From Phoronis australis (Eukaryota; Animalia; Phoronida), in NCBI GenBank assembly GCA_002633005.1, contig NMRA01000855.1, forward strand, positions 5,129-69,128: a DNA stretch of 64,000 nucleotides, in the 5' to 3' direction. Both the position numbers and the translations under genes were made by a program. Below, piece after piece: positions 2,153-44,976 of the stretch; within the stretch, counting starts at the first letter, position 1, and each line of letters starts with the position of its first letter. Below the pieces are notes generated by a model. It searched no databases. It was not told the origin of the DNA and was given only the letters and a program-made list of their open reading frames with translations.

Positions 2153-2282
2153 ATGAAAATGAGGCTAAGCGAGGTTTGCTTTGTGCTATTTGTGGTCCTG
2201 GGATGTATATCAGCCTACACACTACGAGACTTGTTTCAAGCTCTTGAAGACAAAGAGAACGAAAAGAAAAGCCAAGCAGAAG
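2153..2282 (+). CDS. Neuropeptide-like precursor A, coding exon 1 (signal peptide)
   Basis: Acceptor TTTCATTGCAG ends at 2138 and ATG is at 2153. Encodes MKMRLSEVCFVLFVVLGCISA (signal-peptide-like), then YTLRDLFQALEDKENEKKSQAE. Donor AG|GTAATT at 2282/2283, phase 1. Confidence 0.85.
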
Positions 2283-3181
2283 GTAATTGTAACAGAAGTC
2301 TGAGACCCTCCAAGCATTTACCAAACGTTCCTTGACTGGATTCAACATATGGTGTACCAGCTGCATTGGAAATTTTGTAATGCTCATCACACTAATAGTT
2401 ACTTCTATGATTATTTTTGTACAATAGTGAAGTAAGGTTACGTAGGGCCACATCGACACGTCTGTGTATTTATCCAAATACCTGTAAAAATATAGATTTC
2501 AAGTTAGTAAACGTACAGTATGTACATTTTGAAAGTAGAAAGCCTGTACAATTTGATTTTCAATTTTACAGCAATCTCCCATTAATTGGGCCACTTCACC
2601 AAGCCTTTTAAATAAAATTAAGCAAAGAAAGAAATGTACATGTGTAACAAATTAACGGTAACAAAAACATAACCAAATCTGGTTTGATATAAATGTCCAA
2701 GATAGTATCTTGAAAAAGCTGTTACAGTTTTCAAAATTATTTCGTTTTCCTTTCATACAACTCTGGATTTTTTCAGAAAATTCATAAAAATCACATCTAT
2801 TAATAGATGCTCAAGCAAAACTGAAACACTTGGAAATTGTTTTATAAAACAGTGCATGAAGCCAAGTACATGAAGGTTTCCTGTGAATTCAATAGACCAT
2901 TTATGAGTTGTGATATTAGCATTGGATACTTTCCCATGATCCTACAACACCTTCAAAAAAAAATCTTATAACTGAATCCCATCACTAAGCTGCTCCTTTT
3001 GAAAACTCGTTTTCACTAACAGAAATGTAATGATTATGGAAGATGTAACTAACAGTAACATGTATTTACCTTCACACCAAAAGGTAAGTTGAATCAATCA
3101 ATCAAGCAAATACTTAGAAGTTCAACAAGTGTACAAGTGCTTGAAAACTTTCAGCCACTGCTCTTCATTTTGTACTTTCAG

Positions 3182-3681
3182 CCGAGGTCAAGAAAGACAC
3201 TATTCCAGAACAATCAAATGTTAGTGGTAAGAATGACAATAGAGAAAAAGAACTTCTAGAAAAATTGTTGAAGTTACTTGAAGACAGGAAGAAGGCAAAA
3301 CAAGTTCTGATCAACAACAATGACTTGAAGAAAACTGTGACTGAGAAAAAGACAGTGACGCAACAGAAAGCGCTTAACAACAGGGACCAGTACTTTTCAC
3401 CAAGTCAGGACGTTCCGCAAGTCCGAAATTTTGGGTACTACCCGTGGAAGTTAAGACCTCAAGGCGTACCCCAAAAAGGATCGAATTTACAGCAGAAGCG
3501 AAATTGGGGAAAGTATGGGCGTGAGCTGCAGAACCTGAAAAGTAATGCGAACAGGGCATTCGGACCATCTGGCCTGGACTATAATCAAAGATATATAGAC
3601 GCATATGACAGAGATTATATAAGAAAGATGATTTATGAAGAAATAGAGAGATTGTTCTTTAGATCTAAGGATCGGCAATAG
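3182..3681 (+). CDS. Neuropeptide-like precursor A, coding exon 2 (N[FW]G peptides)
   Basis: Acceptor TTTTGTACTTTCAG ends at 3181. The phase-1 join is in frame with ORF 3265-3681. Contains R-NFGYYP, KR-NWGKY-GR, R-AFGPSG and the C-terminal IRKMIYEEIERLFFRSKDRQ. Spliced CDS is 630 nt (209 aa). Confidence 0.85.
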
Positions 3682-5691
3682 AGAGTATTACACAGCTAAG
3701 AATTGAATTAAAATCGACAATCAAAATACAAAAATTATTTTTGTAATTTCAAAAGCTAAGTTCTTTCAAGACCATAGCGAATTGGACACAGTCCAGTACT
3801 TTTGGAATTAATGTATTTTTCTTTACAAGCTTGGCTTTGAGGCATGTTTCCATTTTATATGCTTTAGCCAGATCTCAGAGATGTCTGCTGTTTAACAGAT
3901 CAAACTAAGAGCAGGCAGCTTTATGTCGAAACCTGACTTTCCGGAGGTCAACTTTATCAGAGGATGCATGAAAAACAGTACAATGTAGATATGTTCAAAG
4001 TGATCCATTCAGGATGTGAGGCTTGATCACTGTTTCACACTTTCGCCATAGAAATGTATGAGTGCAGAGGTCAGACGTCAAGGCAATGAACTAGACAGGT
4101 AGTAAGATTTTTTTAACTGAACATTATATAGAGTCAGTCATCGATTATCTTAAAGCAGAAAAGCCCATGTATTAGGTAGACCGGTAAGTCTCCCAATTCT
4201 TACATTATACCTGGTGTTGGGTAGAAGTCACGTACAGGGGTCCAGCACTTGAAAAACAGTTTTCTCTGAATTAAGTAGGTACCAAACTGGTTCTCAAAAT
4301 GCAGACACCTGTGAGTGACTTGTTGCCAACTGTTGTATATTTCTGACTCATGGGCGTGTACTCTCCTCAGAAACCTTTTTGGTGATTCCTAGATTTAAGA
4401 ACAATTAATGAGTATTTTTCAGTTATTTTGCACAAAATAATTCCCTACTGACCAGTTCTTCAAAGAGCAGCCGTGATACAACAGGTGCACGCATCAAGCC
4501 AGTTTTGGAGGTACAGCAATTCTTCAAGTGTTTAGCACATACTATGGCCAGCAAGTGAAATTCTATTTTGTCAAATTTCTCCACGGAAATCGTGGTTTGT
4601 ACTGTAACTGGTGGTGAATTTCCAATATTTTCAGCGCGACCAGCCTTTGAAGATTGGAAAAATGGCAATGTTGGCAAATATTTTTGTGGGGAAAGAGAGG
4701 AGAATTACCAATTCATAACATACATCAAGTTGTATCCACACTTAACTCTACCAGATTGCCATGGTGTTAGATTTTAATGGTGCCATATTAGTCAGAACTT
4801 TGATGTTCCACTAAGGCTCATGTGTATTACCGTAAACATTCGGGTTAACGCCCTGGGTGGTTGAATTGGCAAACCCAAAAAATCGGGGGTGGGCGGTTAA
4901 CCAGACATGGGCGCTTAAAAGTGAAATTTCAAGAAATCCAGAGTGGATGGTTAACGGAACATGGGCGCTTATTACGACACGCAACCGCCCTGGGCGGTTA
5001 ATCTTACCTCGTGATCTATGTCCCCGCACCACACAGAAACTCGGAAGGCGTAGCACTGTTCAAAGAGCGCTATCGTCATGTCGCCAAATGACGGGAAAAA
5101 TGTCATAAAACCGGATGATCCCAACAAAGGTTCTGGTGCCCTCAGATTAGTTATTCACAATTAAATTTACAGAATTGCTGAGTAATAGCCCCGTGCCGTC
5201 CTGCGGTCTTGTTACTTTGCCCTGTAGAGTGCAGACGACCAGAGACCTGGCAGCCTCTACGAGGATTGCAACTATTTCAAGATCTGACCTTGCTAAAGTG
5301 TGCGAGTGCAAGCTTCATGTGCTACAGAGGTCATAACAGACATCAAATTTATGGTTACAGTCTCGTACTAGCTGTCAAGTTCATAGTCAGAGAGCAGTTT
5401 CAAAATTAGTTGTAATAAAAGTTTGAAAAACTTAATTCAGATGTTTTTTTGTGTTTGGGATGTTTATAGTCGACACTTTCAGCGTATGGTTCTAGGGCTA
5501 GCAGCTTTATCTCGATCGCCCGGCATTGCTCACTTGCCGATGCGCCAAACATGCTCGGCAAAGAAGTAGGCATAAGACAAGAATCGGGGTTAAGCGGCCG
5601 TGAGCCACTTGTCAAACAGGAATAAAATTTCGAGCCAAGGCATAAATATGTAATAAAACGACACAAAACAGCGTTTTCAATTCATTCTTAA

Positions 5692-6794
5692 CCCTTTCAA
5701 CACCGCAGACCGCTTAAGCGGTCTCTGAAACTTACCTCCATTCAACGCTGTGGACCGCTTTATCGGTCTCACCATACGCCGAACTTCCAAGCAACAGAAT
5801 ATTTGATTGGTTGATTACGGGAATTCTTTTGTGTACGTCACAAATTTAAATATACCCTTACCTTCATTTCTAACAGCTTTTCTGATTCGTTGCTGAGATG
5901 TAACGGGAGTTATTGAAGGGGTTTCTAAGAATTGAGATCGACTCGCGAAAACAAAATGTCGGCCGACGGCGATTCAGACGTAAGCTTTTCAAATGACGAA
6001 ATTGGCAAAAATGTGTATGCTTTTTACTTAATTAATATACAAGATAATCCAAAAAGGAATTCTTATATATCTGGCCAGATTTTGTTAATTATTAAGACAA
6101 AGAAGTTGAATTACATGGCTTTGAACCGGAGGAAAACTTTACAGGTCGCGAATTTCGCAATTGGGTCAAACAAACGCCGTTGAACTCCGACAACTTCGCA
6201 AATTTTCTGAAAAATGTGGAGTCTTCTAGAGTGTACGATGGTTCTGATAAGCAAGTTGAGTACTTTAAAAATTTCTATATTGATGAAATATTAGGTGAAA
6301 TTGTCAGGGTAATTAATTTGAACGCCCAAACGAAGCGCGAGTCACAACCGGAAGTGGACAAATTTGAATTGTTGAATTTAACGTTCGCCTAATTTAAGTC
6401 ACTTTATGGCCTTCAAATGTAAATAGAAGATGTGAAATATGATCGAAAATGTATCTTAAGAAAGAAATTTTACTGAAGAATATTGACGACACTCACTCAT
6501 AAATCATTTTTATTCTTTAAACGATACATTGAATTTGCAAATTGGCAAACAAACACCGGCATTTCAGGTGTTACTTACCTGCATCAGGTGAGAGACTGAG
6601 ATTTTTTACTTTTGGTGAAATTGTAGATAAAGTTCATTCTGTTCTCTACATTTTGGTGTATTACACTTTGAAATTCAATGATAAATGGATTGTTTATGGA
6701 ATTTTGAAAACAAGCACCTCAGTTCAGCCCATGTGTGCTAAGTTACTTGGGGTTCAGGGACACAATGGCCGACAGTTACTTGGAGTTGAAAGGG
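5692..6794 (+). mobile_element. Internally deleted piggyBac element with transposase N-terminal relic
   Basis: TTAA|CCCTTTCAACACC ... GGAGTTGAAAGGG|TTAA (TSDs at 5688-5691 and 6795-6798). The relic peptide YFKNFYIDEILGEIVRVINLNAQTKR (ORF 6180-6392) resembles the PGBD N-terminal F..F.+.DE++..IV..TN.YA motif. Confidence 0.8.
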
Positions 6795-7414: not shown

Positions 7415-9420
7415 ACAAGAGCAACGCGGAGCGTTGAAATGCGCCCACAATTGCACCGCATACGGTATCCTTCTAGGGTTGTTTATTGGTACCATAAAGT
7501 GGCCAGTAGAGGGCATACTTTGCAAAATGGAAAGGCATGGTCATTGTCTCCTCAATAGGCTAGGGGCAAAATGTGAGTAATCTTCATAATACAAGCACAT
7601 CCTATACACCAGTTGCTTAAAGCACCACAGAAACATAGAATTAAAAACAAATTTACCAACATACGAGATTAGCACAGCATTAGAATGCCAGAAACAAATT
7701 TCTACTTGGAACTTTTCCTTCACAGTCACGAAGTAACACAAAGTATACACCTGAAGACCTATGAAAATACAGAGGTCAATGTAAAATACTAAAATTGCCA
7801 CTAGAGGCAAATACTAAAATTGCCACTAGAGGCATACCGGTAATCAGAATCATCCTAAAGTCGTCATCGTCCGTTGTCAACATCACATAAATACACTTGC
7901 TAAATTTAGTAAAGATCCTGCAAACGGTTTGGGAGATACAGCCATGGGCGCAAAAAAACAAAACTGCCACTAGGAGGCGCCACAGTAGTCCAAATCGTCT
8001 GAAAATCATTGTCAGCTGTCTTCCTTATAGTAAGCACATACACGCCAATTTTCACAATCATCCTTTGAGCGGTTTGGTTGATAGAGGGGTGGACGCAAAA
8101 ATACAGACTCGAAAACAGTAAAAATGGCCACTAGGTGGCGCAAACTACGTCGAATCCATCTGAAAACAGTAGGATAGCGTCATCTCACTAATAGGTGCCT
8201 ACATACCAAATTTCATGAAAATCCGTTCAATACTTTTGAAGATACAAAGGTAAGCGTAAAAAACTAAAATTGCCACTAGGGGGCACACCGGTAGTCGGAT
8301 CCGACCAAAAGTCGTCATCTTCCGTTGTTAACATCATATAAATATACTTACACAATTTGTAAAGATCCTGCGAACGGTTTAGGAGATACAGCCATAGGCG
8401 CAAAAAAACAAAACTGCCACTAGGAGGCGCCACAGTAGTCGAAATCGTCGGAAAATCATCGTCAACCATCCTCTACATAGTAAGCATATACATGCCAATT
8501 TTCACAATCATCCTTTGAGCGGTTTGGTTGATAGAGGGGTGGACGCACAAAAACAGACTCGAAAACACTAAAAATGGCCACTAGGTGGCGCAAACTATGT
8601 CGAATCCATCTGAAAACGGGAGGATAGCGTCATCTCACTAATAGGTGCCTACATACCAAATTTCATGAAAATCCAATAAGGACTTGTGAAGATACAAAGG
8701 TAAGCGTAAAAAAATTAAAATTGCCACTAGGGGGCACACCGGTAGTCGGATCCGTCCAAAAGTCGTCATCTTCCGTTGTTAACATCATATAAATATACTT
8801 ACACAATTTCGTAAAGATCCTGCGAACGGTTTAGGAGATACAGCCATAGGCGCAAAAAAAAAAAAACTGCCACTAGGAGGCGCCACAGTAGTCGAAATCG
8901 TCGGAAAATCATCGTCAACCGTCCTCTACATAGTAAGCACATACATGCCAATTTTCACAATCATCCTTTGAGCGGTTTGGTTGATAGAGGGGTGGAAGCA
9001 CAAAAACAGACTCGAAAACAGTAAAAATGGCCACTAGGTGGCGCAAACTATGTCGAATCCATCCGAAAACGGCAGGATAGCGTCATCTCACTACTAGGTG
9101 CCTACATACCAAATTTCATGAAAATCCGTTCAGGACTTTTGAAGATACAAAGGTAAGCGTAAAAAACTAAAATTGCCACTAGGGGGCACACCGGTAGTCG
9201 GATCCGTCCGAAAGTTCGCACATGCCGTCCCATTCATGAATGGAACATATGTGCCAAATTTCATGAACGTATGTCAAAGGGTTTTGGAGATAGAGCAGCG
9301 GACGCCGGACGCCAGACGCCGGACGCCAGACGCCGGACGCCGCCCGGACGGACGGACGGACGGACGGACGGACGGAGATGACGGCATAATGCGTCCACAT
9401 ATAAATATGTGGGCGCATAA
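7415..9420 (-). mobile_element. Helentron-associated non-autonomous element (HINE; DINE-1/pearl-like) with internal tandem array, copy 1
   Basis: Subterminal IR ATGCGCCCAC/GTGGGCGCAT, terminal hairpin CAACGCGGAGCGTTG, and a (GACG)n microsatellite at about 9300-9375. Three ~451-bp internal units start at 7821, 8271 and 8722 and end at about 9173. Confidence 0.8.
7821..9190 (+). repeat. ~451-bp tandem repeat x3, each made of three ~150-bp subunits headed by GCCACTAG(G/A)NGGC
   Basis: TGCCACTAG anchors at 7821, 8271, 8722 and 9174 (spacing 450, 451, 452). Confidence 0.9.
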
Positions 9421-17992: not shown

Positions 17993-18069
17993 NATTACAC
18001 ACTGCCTTTGACATGACTCAACACTTGAGAAAAAACAACACAAAAGTTTTTGAGTCATTACCTTTTTCT

Positions 18070-19773
18070 AACAAGAGCAACGCGGAGCATTCAAATGCAT
18101 CCACGAATGCACCACAAATGGGGTGCGTCTAGCCTTGATTATTTGCATCAGAAAAATAGCCACTAGATGGCACAAAATGTCCAGTACTTCTAAAAGCGGG
18201 AAGTGCTATCTAAGAAGCTATCTAGAAAACTATTTACCAAATTTCATAAAAATCTATCAAGGAATTTCAGAGAAACAAAAGAAACGTAAAAAAATGAAAT
18301 TGCCACTAGGAGGCACAGCATTCCTTGGATCTGCCTAAAAGTCGTCTTTTTCTGTTGTTAGCTTCATATAGATACCCTCACTAAATTTAATAAAAAATCT
18401 GGAGTGGGTTTAGGAGATATACCTATGGGCACAAAACAAAACAAAACTATCACCACGAGCCACCACAGTAGTTCAAGTCATCGCCAACCGTCCTCTTCAC
18501 ACTGAGAACATATACGCCATCTTTCAAAATCACGATCCTTAGAATGGATTGGTTGATAGAGGATGGACTCAAAAACAGCAAAAACAGCCACTAGGTGGTG
18601 CAAAATTCCTCGATTTCATCCGAAAACGGGAGGTAGCGTTATCTCACCAATATTCGCCTATATTCCAAATTCTATGAAAATCCATTGAGGACTTTTGAAG
18701 AAACAGACTGAGGTAAATGTAAAAAACTAAAATTGCCACTAGGGGGGCACACAGGTAGTCAGATCTGTTCGAAAGTTGTGGTCATCTGTTGTCAATATCA
18801 TCTAAATACATTTAGTAAAGATTCTGCCAACGGTTTAGGAGATACAGCTACGGCCACCAAAAAACTGCCACTAGGAGGCGCCACAGTGATCAAGAACATC
18901 AGAAAATCATCATGAGCAGTCCTCTTCATAATAAGAACATGTATGCCAATTTTCACAATCATCCTTAGAGCGGTTTGGTAGATAGAGGGGTGGACGACAA
19001 CAAACAGATTCAAAAACAGTAAAAATGGTCACTAGGTGGCGCAAACTACATCAAATCCATTCCAAAACTGAATGCCTATAAGCCACATTTTATGAAAATC
19101 CGTGGAGGACCTTTGAAGAAACAGCGGTCTGTAAAAAAACTAAAATTGCCAATAGGGGGCACACCGGTAATCAGATCTATCTGAAAATCGTCGTCTATTG
19201 TCAACATTATATAAATACACTTGCTAACTATACTAAAGATCCTGCAAACTGTTTAGGAGATATAGCCATTGGTGCAAAAAAACAAAACTGCCAGTAGGAG
19301 GCACCACAGTAGTAAAAGTTGTCAGAAAATCATGTTGGCCGTCCTCTTTATAGTAAGAACATACACGCAATTTTCACAATCATCCTTAAAGCGATTTGGT
19401 TGACAGAGGGGTGGACACCAAAAAAACAGACTAAAAAAGAGTGGCCACTAGGTGGCGCAAACTACATCAAATCCATCCGAAATCAGGATGATAGCGTTAT
19501 CTAACTAATAGATGTATACATGCCAAATTTTATGGAAATACCTTGAGGACTTTTGAAGATACAGACTCGGGGAAAACGTAAAAAACTAAAACACCGGTAG
19601 TCGGATCCGTCCGAAGGTTCCCTCATGCCATCCCATCTAAGAAAGGACACGTGCAAAATTTCATGAACATACGTCAAACGGTTTTGGAGACAGAGCAGCG
19701 GAAGGACGCCGCCCGGACTGACACACGGGGAAGATGGCATAATATGTCCACATATAAATATGTGGGCGCATGA
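18070..19773 (-). mobile_element. HINE with GCCACTAG tandem array, copy 2 (more diverged)
   Basis: Same ends as 7415-9420 (AACAAGAGCAACGCGGAGC... and ...GTCCACATATAAATATGTGGGCGCAT) and three degenerate ~430-450-bp units. Confidence 0.8.
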
Positions 19774-21559
19774 AAATGATTTTTCAAAAAGCACTTTTCC
19801 TTGAATCTTTTTTCAACATATGCTGTGCTCTAAAACACTTCCTATGATCTACTTCAAAGTTGTCAGATCAGTAAAGAAGTGTAAAAACAAAGCCATTATT
19901 AGTACCTTTCTATTCTAACACTTGGTTCTAGTCTCTTATTGCAGACATAGATATTCTAAGGGCAAGTCTGGAGCCAGGTGAACTTATGGTAACTTATCAT
20001 TACTTAAGGTTATGCAAGACCATACAGGCAAGTCTGTACATTGGGACAAACATCCATCAAACTAAAAAATTAAGTAAGGCTGCATATTTTCTGATGTTAG
20101 AAAGCCTGCAGAATTGTTTTACTTTAATCCAATGTGCCATTGATTAGGTCGTCAAGTGACCGTGTCTTCGCATTAAAGTTTAGGAAATAAGAAAGTTATG
20201 AAAAATAATGGTATGGATAGCATGACCAAATTCCCTTTTGATATAAATGATATTTAAATTTAATGATCATTGTTTTAATCTTAAACTTTTGAGTTTTTGT
20301 GTACATACAATAGCAGTCCTATTATTTGAAAACACTTCTGGCAAATTGAATCATATTGAAAACAACTGCAACACAGAGTTTTGGAGAACAGTCCATAACA
20401 TGAGACAACTCCTACACCAAGAGAGTCCAAGCCTTACTATGACTACCGTAAACCACCCCAATCGATTCACAAATTAATGCTCGTGACTTAGCCACGATAC
20501 TGAAGAAAACCTCTTAGCTAATTTTTGTTGTAATGCCTCAATTTTAAAAATTCGAAGATGGCTACTATTTATTTTTCAATTTTAAAAACCGTCACGTTGG
20601 TCGTTAGCCTAACTTATTGCTCATTTTTTACTTTGAAACATGTACGCTAAACAGGCGTGTTGGTTTATGACCACAGCTTTCTGATCCAGCACATTCAGCC
20701 AAGCCCATGAATAGTGACTAGCTCACTTCATTACGTGATGGCGCCATCAAGCCTTTGATGTGTCGAGGACTTTGCCGGATACTCTGGGGTACACACTGCA
20801 CTCTTTCTCATCCACTAGCGTGAAATCCAAGAAGATCGAATTTAAGATGTGGATTATGAGATTGTGCAAATAAGCAGAATTTACTGCAACTCTAAACAAA
20901 CATAACAAGGCAGCATAATGATCTTATTCATAACTATACCGTGAGTAACAGGAGACAGTCAGAGTGTTAAAGTTAGGGTTTCACTCAATGTCTGAAAATA
21001 GATCATTACAAAAACGGTTTCTTAAGAGACCAGTCCAGATATCACTTTTGTCCACTGTTAAGCGTTCATGTACTTTTGTCTGAATCGGGACTCAAAGGCC
21101 AATTATATTCCACAGATCAAAGACTTATTGAAACCATTCATCGACAGATACGTTTTATTGGATTTCTTCGGGTAAAATCATTCCAACTAAACATTTCATA
21201 GGAAATTCAATTTCAGAAGCAAAACAGTTTCAATCCAGGATACATAAAAAAGCTAAAGTAAATTTCTGAACTTAATCTAACCAAACATTGAGAGGGGTAG
21301 ACAGTGGAATTTACTTATACAAGCATTTTAAGACTTAATGGTCTGTCAGCTAAAGATGCAAAATGCACCCAAACATTCAATCATCTGCTGACATTTTTTC
21401 AGTGACCATAGTGAGTAACTATAAACCTGTGCCTTCCACCATAAAAACAACTTTTGACTTTGACCACTCACATTTATGAAATTGTTGTCAAGTGGTTCCC
21501 TTAGAAATCAAAACAGTGTTGTGATTTCTGTGCTCCGGAAAGAACTTGGCTGGCATAAA

Positions 21560-25800: not shown

Positions 25801-28800
25801 AAATTTCACTTGTGCTTTAAATAAGTGAATAACTACTTTAGGTCCAGCGACTTCACCTGCAAATGTCAAATACAACATGAGTGGACTCACGAGACAGCAG
25901 GCACTGTTTTGTAAGCCAGAGGTGTCCATGTATTTTGGGATCAGAGGCTTCCAGTAGATGGGCATTCATGAAGACAAGGAGGCTTTAAGGACCAGATAAA
26001 CTAGAAATGAACACAATGGGCTATCAAAAGAAATTTTTTTGATAATTTGGCAGAGGGCAATTAGCCCACTGTTGACGTCAACCAGACAGATGTGATATTT
26101 ACTAATTAATTTCTTAGTAGATGGTCTTTTCTTTAACGTAGATTAACATCACAATCCCAATCACTAAATGATCATTTTACACTGCATGTCAAACTCTCTT
26201 AAATAATAATCCAGCACTGCAAAATATTTTGTTTTAGCTGAGCTGAATATCAGCATGTTTATGTATAAAATTATTAGTAAACACAACACTATTTTCGGCT
26301 TATTGTGTAAACACCTTCACCAATTCATTTGGTTGGTCAATTATACAAACTTCAGGGATCTGAATGAACACATGTGTTGTGTGTGACACAACCTTGAAAG
26401 CTGTTAATAATGCCACTGTGGGGAGGTTTAGCAACAAACCAAAAGAATGTTTTACAAAGGCAATGATTGAAATCACTAATACATTAGCAAGTAATTGTAT
26501 GTTCAAACAAACTACAGCCTAGGGGAAGAATGGTTCACTGTTCAGGCTATAGTAACCTGGCCTGTTTCCTTTCAGTCAGCTGGGCTTGATTGCATTATAT
26601 ATATAAGTGGAGCCCCCACATTGGTTACACTGAGATAGAGACTTGTTGTTGACAAGGACAGAGCTTCTTCAGGTAAATCAAGGTAAGTGACAGGCAGCAA
26701 AAACAAGCTACAAATTTTGTTTCAACGCAATTACAGGTAGAATGAATCCTCGTCAACTTTCCTCTAGTATTAGAAACTGCTGATTTAAGGATTCTCCGGT
26801 TGAGTGAATAATTCATATAACGCTGTTTCACAGAAAAAGAAGGTGGAAGTTGTAGACGGTTGTAACAGAAACAATGCCCTATCATAACCACCTCTTTATT
26901 TTATAGAATTTACAAAAGCTTTCAATTTGGTAAAAGATCACTAATTAACGACAAAAATAGTTGCTAAAATTCCCCTATTGTCATTTCTAATGGTTTCTAA
27001 CGTGAATGCTCACAATTTCTCAAATAGTGATTGTCTGATGGTTCATGAAGCACCGGTGTGAAACTTCAAGCTGATCAAGCATTTATTTTGCATTACATAT
27101 CTGTTGAAGATGAAAAATGAAATTCCGCTTGTCCACCATATTGTGCTCTCAAGTGGTAAAGTTTTACCACAATTTACACAAGGACAATATACCACAGTTT
27201 ACAACCAATATTTACTAATTTACTGTAATGTAACTAATTTACTTGTTACTCCAATTTTGAAAAACATGAAGTCAATGTTTTTTGTTTAAACAATTCAGAA
27301 ATACCTTGAAGCAACACCAGTTATTAAGTGTTGGTCAAATTCTTCACCTCATGACACAGCATTGCAGACAAGTGAGATCTCATTTTGTCAAATTTCAGAA
27401 AAAAATTAACAAGAATTTCACTTCCCTGCTAGCCTAGTTTGTATGCGGGTACAGCTGTCTCGCAACACCATTTGGTAAAATGATGAGTATTTGCTGCAAT
27501 ATGCCTTTGCAATTTTACGACTCATTCATCGAAGAATTTTTGTAGTAGGACACTCCCAACTGTGAGTGAGTCTCAGATCAACAAAAAACAATGACCATTC
27601 TTTACTCTACTAGTTGTGCTGCTTATTGTAGACCCCAAGAAAAGACTGCACTTTAGTTTCATTTGTAAAGATCAACTATGAACAGTAACTCAACTGTACA
27701 TACAGTGCGCAACAAAAGCAATCACTCAAATTACCATTTCAGTGGCATGACTGCTTACTTGGTTAACTGGAAAATTACTGGTAATGACTATTATGGGGAC
27801 AAAATTATGATTACAGGACAAATACACTGACAATGAATTTGTCTTCAGCTCAGCTGTCACCACTGGAATTCGGGGTCATTTTGTTTAAATGCTTTTGACT
27901 GGTACTGTACCTACAACAAGAAAAATATACACCCCACAGAGTCAACACATAAAGTCCAATGTGTATTACCAAAACTATCAGTCAAAAATTATTAATGTTT
28001 CAAAACGTATTAGGGATGAGGTAAAACAAAATTGTGCAATTGCACACAATGGTGCGACCACTAGTGGTATTTGCAGGGGTGACCAACATAGACATGAAAC
28101 TAAATAATCTAATTTGTGAATAAAAACAAATCTGGCTAGAAAACACAGGTATAAGGAGGTCATGGCAACCAATAGGCCAGCCACAACAACAACTTTCTAC
28201 CCCAATGAACAACAGGCATGGCACATTTGTTAGCCAAGGTAGGTTAGGTGTATCTATAACTTGATATGACGGTGACCATTCATATGGCTTTGATCAGTAT
28301 CTGAAATCTTGCAAGTAATAAAAAAGTAAATGACATTGTCAAGCCACATAGAAACAATTAAGACCATGGATTGATCAAATATCGGGAGAGGCTTCTCCCT
28401 TAAAATGGGTACGTAGGGATGTGCTGCTTTTTTTGGGCCTCTGGGGTGGGTAATTTGGTTTGAGGTATTGTCGCGGTTAGGTATCTGTAAAAGTTACCTC
28501 TGCTCTATGGTTGCTGATACATTGCCGGGCACCTGACACAAAAGTGGCATTTTACAGGACTTATCATCTATCAAATGTTGTTGTTGGTAACGAGGATAGA
28601 AACCCATCACAGTCATGATGAGACAGATCTTATGACAATAAAAGACCAGATTTGATTTTCAAATCTTAACCAAGTAAATAAGGTGAAACTCAGTTTTAAA
28701 AACTTTAACGTCAACAGAACATAAAAAATTGTGGTGGTCTAACACAAAGGCGTTAGCTTTTTAGAGAACATCCATATGGAATTTGCCATCCCGCGGGCTA

Positions 28801-28806
28801 ACTCGT

Positions 28807-33000: not shown

Positions 33001-35573
33001 TCTTCCTATTGCTAATAATATCCATGTACATCAACCTTAGACGTCATTTGTTGCCTTCCAAGCAATTTTTGAATAACTATTGAATTTAATCTATTCTAAA
33101 CTGCTAAAAGATTTCATGGAATACTTATTGCTGAAGGGATATATTCCATACCACAATAGGCATTAGTTGATTGAGACATAGTCAATTTAACCGCGCCATC
33201 AATGAAGCCAGCTAACAAGAGGTACTGACAGTCAATGAAGACCATTTTGTTTGGTTTATCAATGTTCAACTATAAAACCAGCTCCAACAGAAAATTCTGT
33301 ATGTAGAAAGCGACATGGTGAATTAACAGCACGTCACCATGAAATGTGGCAATAGAATGGTCAATTCCAAGTTTGTATTTTTGTAGTGAAATTTGATAAG
33401 CACATTGGTCCTTCTCAGAGCTAAATGCATGTTAAATGTTATCCATAAACCACACAATAAGTCATACAAGGAAAATTCAGGAGGTAGAAAACCATTGATT
33501 CAGCCTGAAAAATCTCATCATTGCAATAAATGCCAAGTTTCCAATACTAGTGTCAATGTTTTGAATTTAGCTTGCCTATGAAATTTCGGTGTTCAATAAG
33601 GTTTTAAACAATATCTGTTCAGTATTAAAAATTGGGAAGGTTTCTTATTGAATCATTCAATGGCAAGGCTTGCAGTCATCCTCCTCAAGATATACAAGCT
33701 CTGAATGACATGTTCTCACTGTTGAAAATGAGAGAAAGAGATTATTCAGACATAAGTAGGTCTTAAGACATGTACAAAATTTAATCCACTCTGAGGGGCT
33801 TGTAACCTCAACTTATCAAATTTGACATCCCATGACTAAACGTCTCTAACACAGGTGTTAAACCTATATAAAATATGAATGAATTTAATTTGGAAAAGAG
33901 TGTCTCAAACGGACAAGCACTAACAAATGGACCCAAGTCTTAGACATCAGAAGATAGAAATTTAGAGAAGCAAAACTGGTGCACAAAAGCCATCAATAGG
34001 CATCACTCAGAGTTCTTAGGTATTTTTGAAACATGCTCTGAGTCATACTCACAGACAGTAAAAATGAACTGGAAATATAAGTTGGTATAGTGTTTTCCAA
34101 GACACTCAAGGCCACTGCAATATTTCAGTCTTCTGCGAACAACCATAAGGGGTTCATCAACTTATGAACACATACAATTGGCAAATTTTTGGAAAATAAA
34201 TTTCTCAATTTTGTGATATTCAAATTTTTCTGCTTTTAGTAAATTCAAACTTGGCAAGCATTTGATACATCTCTTGCAGTATGCGTGATACTGGGGTATT
34301 ATTGTATACTGAAGCTTGCTGACAAACAAGGATTCATGCTAAATTTTATCCAATATAAATCTTGCAGCGACGTAATGAAAAACGCTTCATATCTAGATGG
34401 CAACGAGAGTAGCTGGTGCACAGCGTTATGCATACTTGTATGAGGATTTATTGCAGTGGAATTTCCAAACATTTGAATCTTTACATATCACTGTGTCGCA
34501 TACTGCCACAGTTGCCTGAAGGGGTATGCAAATGGTGTACACATACACTCTGTCTATAAACATCCATGAATGAATGAATGAATGACATTTCATTTTGTCC
34601 TTGTCACCTCAGACAGTCTTGAAAATGTGCACTCAAATCATGCGGCATTGTAGGTGAAAGCTGCGTTTTGCTGTATTTAGGCAACTAAATATCCAGAAAC
34701 CAAATCAGGCCTATTACTCTCATAAAATGGGTCTAATATTCCATATAATGATAGGTCTCTATTTCCGTTACTAACAATATCAAGACCCTTAAGTTGAGAA
34801 AATGCTTTAGAGTGTATTGGCTTGGTCAATCCTAACATTGCAAATTCAAATGTGGGACATGCACACATTGCCTGTGGGTGAAGCTGTCACCTTATTGGAC
34901 AACCATTCAAGATCACACAAGCATGGGAATGCTTTTATACCTCAAAAGGCTGTTGTTGACAGCTTAAACAGTGTCAAAATGACCAGTCTGAGCCGGGACT
35001 TTGAAAGTGAGTCAGGCAAAAGACCACAATGCGAATTACATCTTTCCTATATTGCACCATATTTATCTTCAAAATTTCAAAAGGTTTGTGAAATACAGCA
35101 CACTAATCCAAGACTCTGTATTCAAGAGGGCCCACATTTTATTACTGACCACCAGGGACATAATCTCTGATTGACCACTTGCATGGCAGGCTTTGCGTAA
35201 ACTAAGAATTTTATAGTAGAATCGTGCCACAGGATTGGTTAAGCTTCGAGTCCAGAGTCTTAATCAAATCAGAGATCCTCTGGACCCTGACAGCTGCTCA
35301 CCTGTGTGGGTGCATAGTTCACAACCAGAATGTATGGAATACATTTTTTTCAGCTGGCAGAATTGTTTCACTTAGCACTAGAAAGGTTATCCACAGTGAT
35401 GATTGATAATTACTTCTCTCTAATTCCCTTCCATGACGTCTTAAGTTTGGATACAAAACTCTGATAAGACTACACAAAATCACTACAGCCGTCAATGACT
35501 ATTTTAATATGGCAGTAAATCAATGAGTTAATATTCATCAGCACGCTCGTTTTCAATAATTTCCAGGTCCGAG

Positions 35574-35685
35574 ATGGTTACAGTGAAAATAGTCCTCCTT
35601 GTTCTATGTGGAGCAGTTCTTACTATGGCTAACTTCCACAATTTGAAGAGCAGTGACCATGACCAAGGCTATAGGCGATTATCAG
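35574..35685 (+). CDS. Neuropeptide-like precursor B, coding exon 1 (signal peptide)
   Basis: Acceptor TTTCCAG ends at 35566 and ATG is at 35574. Encodes MVTVKIVLLVLCGAVLTMA (signal-like), then NFHNLKSSDHDQGYRRLS. Donor CAG|GTAGG at 35685/35686, phase 1. Confidence 0.8.
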
Positions 35686-36212: not shown

Positions 36213-39200
36213 ACTGGCACCCTTATGTCATTATAACAAATACACTTTGCGTATGCTGTAACAATGCCTATTAGAGTAGTTTCCTCAACAAAAAATAATG
36301 GCCAAAACGGTATGTTTTTCCATTTTCCACTGCCTTGTTAAAAATACAGTTACAGTTCACTATTCCACCAGACGGTGTTCCACATAGAGAAAACTTAACC
36401 CTAAAAGGACATAACTACTGAAAACACCTGCGAATTTTGAAGGACAGAAAACCAAAAATTAAGGTAACTTTCTTCTATAAGTTTTAAGATCAACACAAAA
36501 GAGAAATTCAAAGTAGTGTGTATTCGTAACAATGCCTGTTGAAAACTGGAAACCTCTCCTGATCTTTGGTGAGTGGAAAACTGAAATTTGGTATGCTATT
36601 CCATCATAAGATTACCATGGATAGAAAAGAGAAATTCAAATAGCAAATGTTCAGTGTTTCATGTCGTCACCAGCAGTCCACCTGTTCTTGTTTTTCAAAG
36701 ATATTTTCATTTCAGAAGTTTTTGCTTTAATTAATTACAGCATCCAGTTCTGCTGAAATTCCAATCGTCACAAACCCCATTTTTATGAACTGCAATTATT
36801 GATCAGTTTTGGTTACTAACCTGCTACTGAGTCCTTTGGTTTTTGTGCAGTGAAATTCTGTGTGCACAGCTCAGGAGATTACAGTGCCGTTGTATTTCCT
36901 TAATTTAGAAGAATATAATACTGATCATTGAAATTTTTTTAATCACAATTCTTAACAAAAAAAAGGAAGAAACTTTACTTCAATCATTATTTGCTCAAAA
37001 TACATTGTTATTGACAAGCACATGATGAAATGTTGAGCATTTTTAACAATACTATTAACTGTGTTAGTGAATTCTGATTAATTTTATAATTATTTAGAAG
37101 AGAACCATTCATAGTTACTTGAGGACAAACCAAAACTCACATTTCAACCATAAATACTCCCTAAAGTTATATAGGACTAGCAAAAATGTCCAAATTTGGT
37201 CAATTTTGGAACATCACATCTCACATATGGCTGATAGGATTCATATGAAACTTTCAGGCGCCATGTTTTGTGCACTGTTCTCCAAAACACAGTTAGACAT
37301 TGTTTTTAAAATGTTCCACTTTTACATGAGGTCATCAAAGTAAGACTTATACAAAAATGAAACATTGCTTTTGAGATATAACCTTGAACATGTTTATCAA
37401 ACAAAATTTGGTTGTCTTATTAATATCGTTATTTGCTATGAAAGTATCTTTCACTTTTGTGATATGTTACTGTTAGATATCATCAAATGACCAAATTCAC
37501 CGCAGATTGGCAAACAGCCAACTAGGTATGCTAGTTTCAGAAATATTTTTATTGAGTTATGATCCATCATTTGCAGATATTTGGCTAAATACAAAATTGT
37601 CGATAAGGTCCTAGTACATAACATTTAAGCACAAAATACAGAATCATTTTTATGTCATATCATTCAATATCGCATGAAGTAGTTCCACACTAAAGAGACT
37701 AAACGACCATAATCAATGAAACATAATGTTGTAACACGAGGCATTCAAGTGGGCCACCTGGACAGTTAAATATCGAAACATAATATCACAGGAGAGGACA
37801 ATTAAACAATTCAGCAGCCAACTTGATTTCCACAACATGAATGTTTACCAGTTCATCTGTCCATCAACCCACTGGGCATACATTCCATTCATTGACAACT
37901 TAAATCAGGTGTAGAGAACATTCCAATACAAAATTGTGTATTACATCACTAACTCCATTGCAAGTTTTGTGGAAAGACCACGCACTAAGAACCATAAGCT
38001 AGCTGCACATGCATGGAAGACAGCTGTCACAGAGCAACTAGCACGTAACAGCTGATCGGGCACAAATGTATGTTTTAACACAACTGACACAGAGCAAATT
38101 GGCAGCCATTTTTGATGCCAGTTTGAGAAGTAGTGCGAGTTGCACTCAATCTGTTTCTCTTTCCGTTTCTGTGGTGACGTCAGAGGGTAGGCACCGGGAT
38201 AGTCTCTGGCCCTCCTCCACTCAATCAGTTGCTCCAGTTTCAACTACACGTCTAAACACAACTGGGGCACGGAGGAAAGGGACCATCTTTCAATGGGCTT
38301 GCGCAATAATGTAAATACAGGTGATCTGCTGGTATTCCACGTGGTTTGGGCGTTCGCTATTGGTTATGCGAGCATGCGCAGACAGTCTTCGTGTAAATGG
38401 CACAAGGTGACCCAGTTTGTGATCTAATGTTGTGTAAATGCGACTGAAATTGGAACAAGTCATTCCGTGACATTACTTGCACCTCGACAACTGTTCCCCG
38501 TGTAAAAACAGCAATCTATGACAGAAAGTAGCAGTCTTTAACAAATTCCTGAATTTATCCTTCAACATCGAAGTTATGCATTAGTAGGTGACAAAACGAC
38601 TCATGATTTGTTGAAATCATCAAGACTGGGTTTAGTATCCTTTTAAGAGAAGAAATTTATAACAATGATACATCACTAACTTTGACTGGATGTTGCTTGT
38701 AGGTATTTACACAAGTGCTACTTTCAGTAGAATGTTTGCTTTTGTAAATTGTGATTCCTGTAATTGCAGTCAAGAAGTTTTTCACAATACACTGAAAATT
38801 GTATGAACTGTTACATATACCAGCAAATGGGAATTCTACATAAAACGTGGGTGCTTATAGAGAACTTACAGCGATTTTAGAATGATGAATTTCCCCTAAG
38901 GATGGCTGGATACAAGCTGAACTTATTAATTTTAACTATCTATCACGATTAGGAATAACAGAGAATTTACAAGAACGTTAACAAGATAAAAACGCTATGC
39001 TGTTATGCATTTTGCTGCATTGACAAATCGATGAGATTACTTTTGATGTACTGTGGCTGCGGTATAATTTCATCAATTTAGGAAACATAGAAAACAAGGG
39101 AAATATACTTTCACTTTTAGTAAGTCTAGACAGTGGTGATGGCCAATAGTGAAATGTATCAAATAAACACAGAAAAATGAGGAACCCCAACTGGGAATCG

Positions 39201-39223
39201 AACCACAGGTCTCTAGATAACCA

Positions 39224-39298
39224 GTCCTTAGTAGCTCACTGGTAAGAGCGCTAGCCTGACAATCTAGAGAACTGTGGTTCGATTCCCAGTTGGGGTTC
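39224..39298 (+). mobile_element. tRNA-derived SINE head or tRNA pseudogene within a foldback
   Basis: A-box-like TAGCTCACTGGTAAGAGC, anticodon-arm-like CTAGCCTGACAATCTAG and B-box GGTTCGATTCCC. The acceptor and T stems are imperfect. The 3' part is mirrored by an inverted copy at 39149-39218. Confidence 0.65.
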
Positions 39299-39324
39299 CT
39301 GATTTTCTGTGTTTATTTGTTATA

Positions 39325-40705
39325 CCGTATTCGCCGTAATAACTGCCCATGCCCCTATAAGTGCCCCCCACGCGTTTTCAGACTTTGCTGAAATAAGCGC
39401 CCAGTCCATGAACGTGTACACGCGAACAATGACGTACATACAGTCCTAAAACTCGGCTACAGTAACATCTTCAATTTATTAAAAAAAAATTGCACGGGTC
39501 TTCAAGACCACCAGCGGCACTGCTACGGTTGTATTTATCTGTGACTTTACACATGAGAGTAACGCAGCGCTTCAAAAAGAACGCAACAGCGTTGCTACGC
39601 TCTCGCGACTACCACGTCCCACTATGGTCTGACTTTTCAGTAGACACATTGATCGACTGTCTCATGAATAAAAATAACTCGGTGTTAAACGCACGTGGCT
39701 ACATATCCATGAACCTGTCATCAAAGACATTAGTCGGGAACTATCCATTCATGAAACGGGTAGCATAGCATCAATAAGAAATGAATATTGGCACTAATTT
39801 CTGACAATTTCTAATACTATAAAACATGTTTGCATTATATTTGAGATGGATTGTTTGATTAACCATAATTGGTGTTTATAAGCCGAATATCCCATAAAAT
39901 GACAACTGACAGTGAATGCTTACACACCCTTACACCGAAAAATAACTGTCAGATAGTTACGTACGCATCAGCTACACGGCGACTAATATGGGCCTTACCG
40001 AGGCAAATGTCGAAAGTTTTTAGCACGAGACCGGCAAGTGCTGAATGAAACACACTCTGGTTTAAGCCTACTGCTTGTGCAAATTTCTTTAGACACATCT
40101 AGCTAGTTAGGTTGCGTGGCTCTGGCCAAAAGACGGTCTCTGCTTTGGCAAATGAACTCTGGTGACACGCACACACTCGCTTACTCGCAGACGAACTTCA
40201 AAACAAATGTCACGTGACAACAACATGTGTGTTCGTCCAGACATTTTTCTCGCCGTGTTGCCGATCATACATGTAGATGGCACGATGTTGCACAGATTTG
40301 TACTTAAACCTACCGTTAATCCATACTCCACGGGAACTTAAAAAATCTTGGAGACGCTGCTTATAAAACTTAATGAGGATTTCAGGTAATTTGCTGGAGT
40401 CGAAAAAATTTTTATTCAAGCATTGAAGTCGCTATATTGAAGACGGCAATTTCGAAGCAGTCAGTCGGCGAGTTTTTGCCCTGGGATTTCAGCACACTTT
40501 TCCTATAACATTTAGCAGCAAAGTTTGATAGCAATGCACCACAGTTTTGTTGAGTCTTTCATAGCTTACATATACGTCACAGAGCGTAAATTTGATGAAT
40601 CTTAGCTTCCGATTTCACCCGTTTCGGAGACTGGGCTTCAACCGCCTTGGGTTATAATAAGCGAACTTTTTTAAGCGCCCTGGGCGGTTATTACGGCGAA
40701 TACGG
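39325..40705 (-). mobile_element. Tc2/pogo-like non-autonomous element, copy 2 (inverted relative to 179-1569)
   Basis: TA|CCGTATTCGCCGTAATAACTGCCC ... GGGCGGTTATTACGGCGAATACGG|TA. The interior is the reverse complement of copy 1. Confidence 0.88.
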
Positions 40706-40919
40706 TACTTTCACTTTTAGAAACGTACATTACGTTAAGTGCAGGATGTGTTGTTTTCTAGTTCTATACCATAGGTTCTGTCAGACAATCTTTGTTAAAG
40801 TGAAAAAAGGTCAATTTTTGTAATTATTTTGTCTGAAATTGGTGAGATGTTACCATACAAGACTATAATACCATAATCTGTTTACACATTGTACTCTCAC
40901 TGTTTAATCATCTTTTCAG

Positions 40920-41090
40920 ATCAAGTGGAAAATTCAAAAACAAGTGATGACTATCTCATCCTAAAACTGAGACAACTCATAGACATCTTAAAAACTAAGC
41001 TTGAAAGAAATAAAGAGACTACAAAACGGCTTGAAGACATGCACTTAGACGAGGCTCGTCAGAAAAAGGAGGACTCCGAGCTTTCCAAAG
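40920..41090 (+). CDS. Neuropeptide-like precursor B, coding exon 2
   Basis: Acceptor TCTTTTCAG ends at 40919 and donor AAG|GTAACT is at 41090/41091. 171 nt, phase 1-1, open frame: DQVENSKTSDDYLILKLRQLIDILKTKLERNKETTKRLEDMHLDEARQKKEDSELSK. Confidence 0.75.
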
Positions 41091-41673: not shown

Positions 41674-43361
41674 AGGAGAATGCCACCTGATTTAATTAGT
41701 CCTTTTTGCCGTCTTAATTGGTCTATATCCACATTGCCACGCATACGGTCGACCTTACCTTGCCAAGAGGTGTCGCGTTAACCTGTGAAGAAGGTGAGAA
41801 ACGACGCTAGCAACGTCAGTGGTTCATCTGCAGAGTGAATGCCGATATGTTGCGGTGCATCGTTCCCGCTTGTCCGAACTATGCAGCTGCGAGGAAAGCG
41901 GGTACATCGGGTTTTTTCGACATCCTCGAGAGACAGAAATACTTAGGAAGTGGCTCGTGGTAGTGAAGAATGAAAAGTACGCTGTAAATAGCAAGTATGA
42001 GGCTGTGAAGCATCTCCGTGTCTGTAGCCTGCAGTCGTCGACAATGCCCGACGAATGCCGGCTTACCAAATAACTATCCAATCGATACGTTCTGTTGTCT
42101 GAGCTTGTTCACGGTGCCTCTCTAGTATTTCTTCATCACTGTATTCCTGTTCGAATTGATAGCCTGTGAAACTTAACGATCAACCTGCGAAGTCTTCGTA
42201 GGGATCGACTGATGAGCTCTGGTCTAAGTCGGGATTGTGAGTTGCCATGTTGATGTTTATTACTGAGCGTTCTGTTTCAAAGTGAATAATTCTCACCCTA
42301 ACCAATACTTATATAAAACTGAAACAAAGTCTGCCTCATTAGATGCAATTTGTAATGCCTTTCGAGTGTTCGTGAGTGCAAATGATTTGAGAAGCCAGCA
42401 ATGAATAAATCACTGCGTTACCAGCTTTAGGTGCAATAAAACTAATTGACAGGACACCGAGGCCGTGTGAGCTCATTCTAATTTAGCGTTTGCTGGCAGA
42501 AACTGTTGTGAAACAACTCATTCGATTTCCACCCCACGGCTTGGAGTTAGGGGAGTCTTTATTTACATTTACATTATAAAAATAATCATTGTCAATGAAC
42601 AACCTCTGCCCTGACGGTGCTGTGGCCAAAGCAGAACCTAAATTGGCGGCCCCCGACGAGTAAGTAGATTTGCAGTTTCGTGGGTAATTCACCAAAATAA
42701 TCACGTGCGCATTACTTTGGCTCACTAGTATAGTATTTTCATGACTGGAAGTTTAGTTTCCAACTCTGGCTGGTTTATGTTCGTAACGTCTGATCAGTTT
42801 GCGAGCCACTGGCCGGATAACGAGTCAATCCAGCCGGCCACAACGGGCCTAATCGGGCTCCGAGCCACTGGCCATAATAACAAGCATTTTGTGTGTTTAG
42901 AACTCAAAAAAATCACAAGTCTAAACAACACAGATCGGGGTTATCCTGTCTGTATCTCACGGATAATACTTGGAATTTGTCTCCGAACAGACCCAAACTC
43001 CTGCTACGGACCTTATTGGCCTGCCGAACTTTGGAGGCTATGGTGTGTCCAAATACCAATAAATCCGTAACAGCGAAATAAAACAACACGTTTTTATAAG
43101 AACTCGGTATATTTTTGAGGATTCTACATCGAAGTTTGATGATTTATTGGTGTTAAACGATAAATTTAAGCGATAAGCTGACACCAGTTACCAGTGCTGT
43201 TAACTAACAGATTGCGTGTGAAACCAATTACGTCATTGGATAATTTCGACACCTCCGTCTGCCGTCAGGTGTCGGTAACGCAACCGTACGTGCCGTTATG
43301 GAGTAGAACTACTCGATCTAAATTGATACAAATTAGGTTGTTTTTTGGGTGGCATGCTCCT
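41674..43361 (+). mobile_element. Kolobok-like DNA transposon relic with a frameshifted THAP domain
   Basis: TTAA|AGGAGAATGCCACC ... GGTGGCATGCTCCT|TTAA. From 41847: MLRCIVPACPN..., then after a frameshift GFFRHP.E.EILRKWL...LRVCSL, which fits the THAP C2CH pattern with the His lost. Confidence 0.75.
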
Positions 43362-44542
43362 TTAAGGAAAATATTCTGTGAGACTAGGAAATGGATTTGT
43401 TGTTAATTAGTGGTGTGTTTCATATTCCAGGAATTCGAAAGTTTAATTTTGGACTTTTGGCACCAAATACAAAAAGTTCTACTTCTCCAACCTGACAGAA
43501 AAAAATGTTCTATTGTTTTCTGCAGTGGAAGTTGTGTTCGATTTGAAATGGAATGAGAAGTTGTCATTATGACAAAATCCATTCATTTCATCACTTCTGT
43601 GATTTGGAAATGAAAGGTTTCAACCGCTGGAATATGCAAAATACCACTAGTTTCCAAGAAACCCATTCTCTCCTGTTCGCATTTCAGAGTATCCTTGTTA
43701 AAACTTTTAGTCATCCTGTACAATGGTGCACACAATTTTCTTGAATAATCGAGGATTCTGATAATGATACATTTTTAGTCACCTTATACATTCGTGTACA
43801 CAAGTTTCTTCAATAATCAAGGATTCTGATGATGCATTGCTCCAGAAGGTGAAAATATGGACATGGAAGATATTAAGAAGTTTTGATTCTTGATAGCAAA
43901 TGTAGACAGTCTTAAATATCTGATTATCTATTGTAATTGACTAGTGTAAATAGAGCTTGCGGATGTTGGAAAAGACAACAAAATCCCTTTTTGTTACATT
44001 ATGACGTTTAATACCCAAACGTGAATATTTAACGCCAGGTTCTTTCACTCAAATAATATTTTTAACTCTGCTGACACCAGAGTGTAGGAAATCCTATATT
44101 TTGCCTATTAATATAGCTCAATGTTTATTGCATCACACAACGCATGACATGGCAGAAAACTACATCAATTCACAGCAAAACGAAAGTTGGACACAACAAC
44201 AAAAATTTGCTGAAAAACTGCCCCCTGGAAGATTTCTCCAAACATGTTTTTAGAACATGAATGTTCGGATACTCAAGGTGGTTAAAAAGGGCAATAAAAT
44301 CCATCCCATCTGGCCTAGGCAGAGGCAGATAGGTTACTGAACACATAGACTATGAAACCCCTCACATTCCCACCAATGCAATGGGTGGAAAATCCCGAGA
44401 TTGGAACTAACTGTTCTTGGCCCCAAGTGGTACGAACGGAAATCTTTGAATTTAATTACAGAACATTTAATTGCAACAGCTACAAAGAACTTGCAAAGGT
44501 AACATTAATTTCTAAATTAAAACATCCTCGTCTGTATTCCAG

Positions 44543-44976
44543 AGAACACAGCTGAAGAGCCGGAGGACACAGCGAAGGCGGCCAGATTGAAAACCTTGCT
44601 GCAGAGTCTAGCTAAGAAAATGAACACCAACACCAATGACGGCAATGAATCTGAAGAAACGCCACCTAGTGAGAGAAACTTTGGACCACATGGTCAGGAA
44701 GAGAATGTTCATGATAAATTAGGTGCGAGAAACTTTGGACCAGCCGGAAAGGAAAATTTGCAGTCAGTGCACAAGAAGGGTAATTACGACTCGGAAACAA
44801 AAACAAGCGAAGGAGACGTCAACGAATCGCAAGAACGACAGAACTTTGGTCCAGCCAGATTGGCGGAAGCGGAAAATGCTGATGACAAGCGAAATTTTGG
44901 AACGTTTGGACGAAGCTTGAGACAGATGATTGACGAAGAACTAGAAAAGGTGATGCAGAGGAGAGGAATGAAATGA
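44543..44976 (+). CDS. Neuropeptide-like precursor B, coding exon 3 (NFG peptides)
   Basis: Acceptor TCTGTATTCCAG ends at 44542. The phase-1 join is in frame with ORF 44587-44976. Contains R-NFGPHG, R-NFGPA-GK, R-QNFGPA-R, KR-NFGTF-GR and C-terminal LRQMIDEELEKVMQRRGMK. Spliced CDS is 717 nt (238 aa). AATAAA at 45265 and 45619. Confidence 0.85.

Follow-up and report, generated by a model that had tools for sequence, protein, structure and literature searches.

Standard prohormone processing involves a PC1/3-type convertase, a carboxypeptidase, and PAM (PMC9545775). Among the described peptides that come closest to the present case, those of the pedal peptide/orcokinin type, which include nemertean-mollusc pedal peptide 3 (PMC8557429) and echinoderm PPLN2 (PMC6586643, PMC5656890), are encoded by multi-copy secreted precursors, begin with x-Phe-Gly, and comprise a mix of amidated and non-amidated products; known members are dibasic-bounded, about 10-18 residues long, and similar along their length. 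NG peptides (NGFFFamide, NGFFYamide, and NGIWYamide; PMC6156427) are amidated pentapeptides with an N-terminal Asn, a C-terminal aromatic residue, and KR...G-basic sites. Cnidarian GPRGamide precursors contain NFGPxG-like stretches (PMC7523074), and the echinoderm AN peptides and the predicted, unassigned crinoid precursors PCNP1-20 are lineage-restricted families recognized only by a short N-terminal motif, with no known receptor (PMC9793003). SALMFamides end in LxFamide or FxFamide. Their genes have a phase-0 intron after the signal exon, and kisspeptin genes have a phase-1 intron between the signal and peptide exons (PMC9400282). Here we analyze two genes, A and B, on the + strand of a 64,000-nucleotide stretch of DNA (contig NMRA01000855.1, positions 5,129 to 69,128; hereafter the window), whose predicted proteins repeat a short [NA][FW]G motif.

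A first-pass annotation of the window had proposed that A and B are paralogous precursors of an unrecognized N[FW]G-x-x-amide neuropeptide family. The observation is confirmed, and the interpretation is partly supported. A and B are transcribed, spliced genes, and we think it reasonably probable that they encode secreted prohormones from which cleavage at basic residues would release short peptides starting with N[FW]G, most likely neuronal or endocrine signals. Judged from sequence, they probably constitute a new, lineage-restricted family of peptide precursors of a well-known kind, and it is from the same evidence that we infer their neuropeptide status.

Results

Seven copies of an [NA][FW]G motif behind basic residues

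All seven motif copies were found on the + strand where the first-pass annotation had placed them, with the motif itself starting at 3427, 3502, and 3556 in gene A and at 44677, 44731, 44842, and 44893 in gene B. Every copy directly follows Arg or Arg-Gln, as had been claimed.

3427, + strand: gene A copy R-NFGYYP, behind a single Arg
3496..3522, + strand: gene A canonical copy KR-NWGKY-GR, predicted amidated pentapeptide
3553..3573, + strand: gene A copy R-AFGPSG, behind a single Arg, its Gly without a basic residue after it
44674..44694, + strand: gene B copy R-NFGPHG, its Gly without a basic residue after it
44728..44751, + strand: gene B copy R-NFGPA-GK, predicted to be amidated provided that cleavage occurs at each of its two single basic sites
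44836..44859, + strand: gene B copy R-QNFGPA-R, without Gly; would yield a pyroglutamyl, non-amidated peptide
44887..44913, + strand: gene B canonical copy KR-NFGTF-GR, predicted amidated pentapeptide

We shuffled each protein 100,000 times and counted the pattern [KR]x?[NA][FW]G. Shuffled proteins contained on average 0.018 (A) and 0.014 (B) copies, with a maximum of 2, versus the observed 3 and 4; none of the 100,000 shuffles reached the observed count for either protein, and a chance motif was rejected. A reading of the motif as an RNF-amide was also rejected, since it would require a cut between Gly and Pro. Lone NWG matches at 38260 and, on the minus strand, at 56507 are single copies outside any exon model and were set aside.

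There are two types of copy. The first, KR-N[FW]Gx[FY]-GR, occurs once per gene; the remaining five copies come after one Arg, with the sequence [NA]FGP in four cases and NFGYY in one. Gly is present at position 6 in five of the seven copies, as the first-pass annotation had noted, but Gly plus a basic residue follows only three, and among the single-Arg copies Gly-Lys follows only NFGPA. The proposed N[FW]G-x-x-amide is thus fully signalled in three copies only, those of the three predicted amidated pentapeptides. In both proteins, the spacers are long and charged, and Cys is absent after the signal region. A signal peptide had been claimed for each; we found one N-terminal hydrophobic stretch per protein (mean hydropathy 2.6-3.3), so that the signal peptides are predicted from hydropathy alone.

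Prohormone processing would free one N-[FW]-G-x-[FY]-amide per precursor, and the predicted products of the KR...GR copies are NWGKY-amide (A) and NFGTF-amide (B). Less securely, the single-Arg [NA]FGP copies would represent a second peptide type, in which NFGPA could be amidated in the standard way. The other single-Arg copies might give rise to longer, N-terminally conserved peptides, or might be trimmed back to Gly by a non-basic exopeptidase; in the copies without Gly-basic, another 14-23 residues pass before a dibasic or motif-Arg site is reached. At two of the five single-Arg sites, another basic residue stands a short way upstream (P5, P6), which is a reported context for monobasic cleavage, and monobasic Arg cleavage has been documented by mass spectrometry in a nemertean (PMC8557429). 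Because basic residues precede every copy, processing would appear to be of the bilaterian type. By analogy only, the peptides would act through a receptor of the G protein-coupled class (GPCR).

Exon structure and RNA coverage

RNA evidence for both genes came from four runs (X1-X4), which represent at most four samples from two studies and carry no tissue label. X1 consists of contigs in which introns are skipped and whose RNA origin is only guessed.

The exon model proposed for gene A (2153-2282 + 3182-3681) holds up as an open frame of 209 amino acids with a GT-AG intron, and its junction 2282/3182 was confirmed by one X1 contig and by 41, 38, and 89 reads in X2, X3, and X4, respectively.

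2139..2282, + strand: gene A first coding exon; acceptor 14 nucleotides before ATG 2153, predicted signal peptide, phase-1 donor
2283..3181, + strand: gene A intron; 899 nucleotides, GT-AG, phase 1, joint in RNA
3182..4470, + strand: gene A last exon; stop 3679-3681, then 3' untranslated region (UTR) to at least about 4470, from stranded depth and loose ends at 4471

RNA pieces of gene A begin at 2137 and carry 210 unmatched letters upstream, which implies that a further non-coding exon joins at 2139; these 210 letters had no match in the window. Over the exons, every raw-read pair has its first mate on the minus strand, as expected for a transcript of the + strand, and in the intron most bins contain no reads.

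For gene B, the model 35574-35685 + 40920-41090 + 44543-44976 likewise gives an open frame (238 amino acids) with GT-AG introns. It gains a non-coding first exon that was absent from the earlier model.

26600..26682 (at least), + strand: gene B non-coding first exon; joint 26682/35567 in an X1 contig, GT-AG, 81 letters on the short side
35567..35685, + strand: gene B first coding exon; acceptor 7 nucleotides before ATG 35574, predicted signal peptide, phase-1 donor; X1 piece 35565-35681
40920..41090, + strand: gene B internal exon; 171 nucleotides, charged spacer, 3' junction in RNA
44543..45594, + strand: gene B last exon; stop 44974-44976, 3'-UTR to at least 45594; X1 piece 44541-45594

Junction 41090/44543 was confirmed by one X1 contig and one X3 read, and the 5'-UTR junction 26682/35567, found in one X1 contig, is new. 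The first-pass annotation had proposed three junctions in all: 2282/3182 and 41090/44543 are present in RNA, but 35685/40920 is not among the 15 of 74 joints listed. The X1 contig piece that ends at 35681 leaves 37 letters over, which fits junction 35685/40920 and does not show it. Mean raw-read depth was 9-136 over the gene A exons versus 0-1.4 over the gene B last exon, in two mappings with different likeness thresholds.

A TATA-like run lies at 26596-26607, at the edge of the non-coding first exon of gene B; the X1 contig seems to extend farther upstream.

A second form of gene A

One stretch of the gene A peptide region differs between RNA runs.

3406..3454, + strand: variable stretch of gene A; the window form has R-NFGYYP at 3427, the second form at least two R-NFGPQ copies instead

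Agreement with the window ends after 3405 in the X1 contig, 21 X3 reads, and 46 X4 reads, and it resumes at 3455 in 27 X4 reads. Translated by eye, the loose ends give ...ER-NFGPQ on one side and ...QLR-NFG running into the window's PQG on the other; because the residues preceding the two motifs differ, the second form has at least two NFGPQ copies. At 3444, the window form is covered by 10 reads of X2, 12 of X3, and none of X4. X3 has both forms, and X4 almost only the second. An assembly artefact was ruled out for NFGYYP, as X2 and X3 reads lie on it. In the window form, NFG-YYPWKLR-PQG has the look of an NFGPQG copy into which seven codons have been inserted. NFGYYP, which the first-pass annotation had counted as a family copy, is present in the window form but is specific to that form of gene A, other reads having NFGPQ copies in its place.

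The second form is likely an allele, which is the simplest reading, because the X1 contig matches 3180-3405 with no differences; alternatively, it may be a nearly identical third gene. The second form contributes further NFGP copies, and we counted these in favor of a peptide precursor.

Common layout and constraint

Genes A and B share a layout. In both, the first exon is non-coding, an acceptor lies shortly before the ATG (14 and 7 nucleotides), the signal exon is followed by a phase-1 intron, the motifs are confined to the last exon, and the KR-N[FW]Gx[FY]-GR copy occurs exactly once; all introns of both genes are phase 1. A full-length local alignment of A and B scored 68 versus a shuffle mean of 42, with 5 of 2,000 shuffles reaching 68. 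The last 30 residues, a region chosen after looking, scored 36 versus 18, with 1 of 2,000 shuffles reaching that score. A scan of 109 of 333 open reading frames found no conserved gene and no other gene between A and B. The tandem paralogy proposed in the first pass is thus favored by the motif, the gene layout, and a putative C-terminal helix, but no similarity is left outside the motifs once these are masked. We consider A and B likely, though not proven, to be old duplicates.

Differences between RNA and genome were taken from the 40 best-supported rows of each of two tables, of 179 and of 1,738 rows. The listed differences fall on 21 coding positions in 20 codons, 10 of which are synonymous and 10 not. 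The synonymous fraction of 10/20 exceeds the expected 20-24% (p 0.003-0.01, for the listed rows), and no listed difference changes a motif core.

Comparison with named families

Within the searchable material, no named family matched, in agreement with the first-pass annotation. The latter had also separated A and B from NG peptides, SALMFamides, kisspeptins, and orcokinins. Defining features of the first three are lacking, but the pedal peptide/orcokinin type is the nearest look-alike, and here the separation is less clean. By the features tested, A and B would behave like an ordinary multi-copy proneuropeptide that is not an NG peptide, SALMFamide, kisspeptin, or GPRGamide precursor. No copy ends in LxF or FxF, and the phase-1 introns differ from the phase-0 intron of SALMFamide genes. 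The phase-1 intron of kisspeptin genes is present in both A and B, which proves little, since many genes for secreted proteins share this feature. Kisspeptins are peptides of about 10-15 residues ending in an RF-amide-like motif, whereas the predicted products here have 5 residues and no such ending. The evidence for the AN peptides and PCNP1-20 is of the same standing as that for A and B, but their motif differs (PMC9793003).

We searched published collections for the motif. In the supplement of PMC8557429 (3.85 million characters), no precursor repeating the motif was present among the matches listed, the places viewed being RNFG 5/5, RNWG 4/4, NFGP 3/3, RAFGP 5/5, NFGT 4/4, and QNFG 1/3. 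As a control, the sea urchin NGFFF precursor was present in this supplement; a hemichordate NG motif gave 0 matches, so its deuterostome coverage may be patchy. There were no motif matches in the supplement of PMC6188537 (1 file), and none for RNFG, RNWG, NFGP, or RAFG in that of PMC9793003 (7 files). In files 1-12 of the supplement of PMC11087051, a cnidarian peptide study, the motif matched only receptor or unrelated sequences, and four longer strings gave 0 matches in its 31 files. The readable supplement files of PMC7523074 have NFGP at three places, all in GPRGamide and HIRamide-like precursors. NFG gave no match in the available main-text passages of PMC10508912, PMC4772807, PMC5627052, PMC6586643, PMC11868395, PMC9793003, PMC13554239, and PMC9545775. 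One literature search with the motif gave 10 papers, among them two invertebrate peptidome studies with one NFGT match; the others gave no paper, none on neuropeptides by title (among 40 of 69 listed), or none that was related (6 of 6), and peptides printed only in figures escape a text search. There is a small but real chance that the family has already been named, in a figure or in a paper beyond the reach of the search.

Homolog searches used single exons as queries. With the last exon of B, none of 38 candidates in a protein search was a relative at E<=1, there was no match at E<=0.001 among 1.84 billion representatives, no usable Atlas match, and none in PDB; none of the 157 matches of the B motif pattern in metagenome contigs was a relative. 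The last exon of A yielded 0 of 310 candidates at E<=10, a best Atlas match of 0.79 that is unrelated, and one PDB row at E 0.55. Pfam contained no family at cut-off for the seven pieces searched. These blanks do not show novelty, because the window's own proteins were not returned and the lineage is perhaps poorly covered.

Alternative readings

The rival that survives best is that A and B are divergent precursors of the pedal peptide/orcokinin type, whose products would be 14-23 residues long, start with xFG, and be mostly non-amidated, our pentapeptides being over-trimmed. We regard this as unlikely. It accommodates the four copies without a Gly-basic signal and the 14-23 residues from these to the next dibasic or motif-Arg site. 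A nemertean precursor listed next to pedal peptide 3 has KR-PFG[STGP] repeats and one AFGPV copy, a Daphnia orcokinin ends in NFGTFA (PMC8557429), and sea cucumber PPLN2 peptides start with FG (PMC6586643). For hemichordates and chordates, such peptides are reported to be still missing, with strong divergence as a possible reason why they escape notice (PMC5656890). Of the pedal peptide 3 start KR-xFG[STP], as read off known sequences, xFG[PT] occurs in five of the seven copies, but with KR before only one of those five. However, the echinoderm examples are dibasic-bounded and about 13-18 residues long, with a DP-hydrophobic core (PMC6586643, PMC5656890), whereas KR precedes only two of the seven copies here, the other five follow one Arg, and no DP core comes after any window-form motif. 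Similarity among the A and B copies ends at residue 6, beyond which lie unrelated acidic or polar spacers, and the likeness to this type amounts to three residues and is weak.

We consider it quite improbable that A and B instead encode exocrine products (mucus, skin-gland, defence, or venom) with neuropeptide-like processing, clustered with a third small, Cys-rich gene of secreted type. The structurally variable peptide region of gene A, the many amino-acid differences between individuals, the good coverage of gene A in runs of no stated tissue, and the lack of relatives for either gene in the collections searched would all suit such a reading, as would the presence, on the same strand and 14 kb downstream, of a third precursor that is predicted to be secreted and contains a CC-x6-CC peptide (described below). 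Such variability is no less typical of gland or defence peptides than of neuropeptides. Yet the motif core is unchanged in the listed differences, synonymous changes are in excess, and a link between the third gene and A or B is conjectural. Unassigned lineage-restricted precursors are, moreover, common among predicted neuropeptides, with 20 in crinoids (PMC9793003).

That A and B are offshoots of the NG peptides (NPS/CCAP), with neurophysin lost and Gly shifted by one position, is very improbable. The two canonical products have the length of NG peptides and, like these, start with Asn and end in an aromatic amide, and sea cucumber NG precursors have also lost neurophysin (PMC6156427). In A and B, however, Gly stands at position 3 and not 2, the Asn-Gly motif is absent from all seven copies, and the extra single-Arg NFGP copies, like all five single-Arg copies, are unlike the tandem dibasic copies of NG precursors. 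Neurophysin had no Pfam match at cut-off in the last exons, and there is no Cys after the signal region. Finally, it is scarcely credible that the host is a cnidarian and that A and B are derived GPRGamide-type precursors: hexacorallian GPRGamide precursors do hold NFGPRG-GR stretches resembling NFGPxG (PMC7523074), but none of the seven copies has GPRG or a GR cleavage site after it, the four longer motif strings gave 0 matches in the 31 supplement files of PMC11087051, and the residues in front of cnidarian peptides are acidic or otherwise non-basic (PMC9545775), whereas Arg precedes each of the seven copies here.

Other features of the window

The third predicted secreted precursor has 75 amino acids and is encoded by 58814-58967 + 59436-59601 on the + strand, with an acceptor at 58814 and an ATG at 58904. 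It has a hydrophobic N-terminus, a phase-1 intron, an acidic pro-part, an RSRR site, and a CC-x6-CC peptide followed by KRR, and there is a donor after the stop. No Pfam, PDB, or protein relative was found. Judged by these features, it could be a defence peptide, a toxin-like peptide, or a hormone. At about 59090-59105, a second acceptor-like stretch resembles, by eye, the start of exon 2 of this gene, with a stop soon after; it is possibly a decayed duplicate exon.

Several repetitive elements were also observed.

159-1569 and 39325-40724: 1.4-kb element in two inverted copies, 84% identical, the first upstream of the gene A coding exon and the second in the second intron of gene B
39157-39322: near-palindromic element, 80% self-complementary, with a tRNA-like sequence inside at 39225-39297 (Rfam 44.6 bits); probably tRNA-derived and repetitive
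6096-6389, + strand: piggyBac-like transposon relic by eye, no Pfam match
41798-42070, + strand: transposon relic with a THAP fragment (E 0.0003, below cut-off)
7809-9376: 450-bp tandem repeat (3.1 copies, 93%) with CGGA microsatellites at its end; a diverged copy lies at 18152-19777

Discussion

We favor the reading of A and B as spliced genes for secreted prohormones with N[FW]G-starting peptides, and several observations count against it. First, the Gly-basic amidation signal is present on only three of the seven copies, and for three of the five single-Arg sites the seven residues upstream contain no further basic one. Second, with the motif cores masked, the alignment of A and B scores 38 versus a shuffle mean of 40 (reached by 1,271 of 2,000 shuffles), and their last exons have no DNA similarity (159 versus a mean of 140 and a maximum of 178 in 300 shuffles). 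Third, the peptide region of gene A is structurally variable, and six of the seven listed gene A replacements between individuals lie in the last 28 residues, the region of the putative C-terminal helix. Meanwhile, no ortholog of A or B was found in these collections, and gene A is well covered and gene B barely in RNA runs of no stated tissue.

A broader proposal is possible, although we hold it to be doubtful. Here, A and B would belong to an unnamed, lineage-wide neuropeptide family that combines a canonical N[FW]Gx[FY]-amide, mirroring the NG peptides, with NFGPx peptides cut at single Arg and subject to non-basic trimming, and whose copy number and sequence vary among wild alleles. Such a family might be the missing ligand of an orphan receptor clade, or the lost pedal peptide/orcokinin line of its phylum.

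The interest of the finding has its bounds, as precursors of this design are textbook cases and every newly examined taxon tends to add dozens of predicted ones that cannot be assigned. If confirmed, A and B would provide a new peptide family, with three predicted amides ready for GPCR deorphanization, from an animal whose peptide repertoire is apparently uncharted. In ophiuroid species, precursor copy number has been reported as mostly constant (PMC5627052). The within-species change in the peptide copies of gene A, if true, would offer a direct view of the evolution of a multi-copy precursor.

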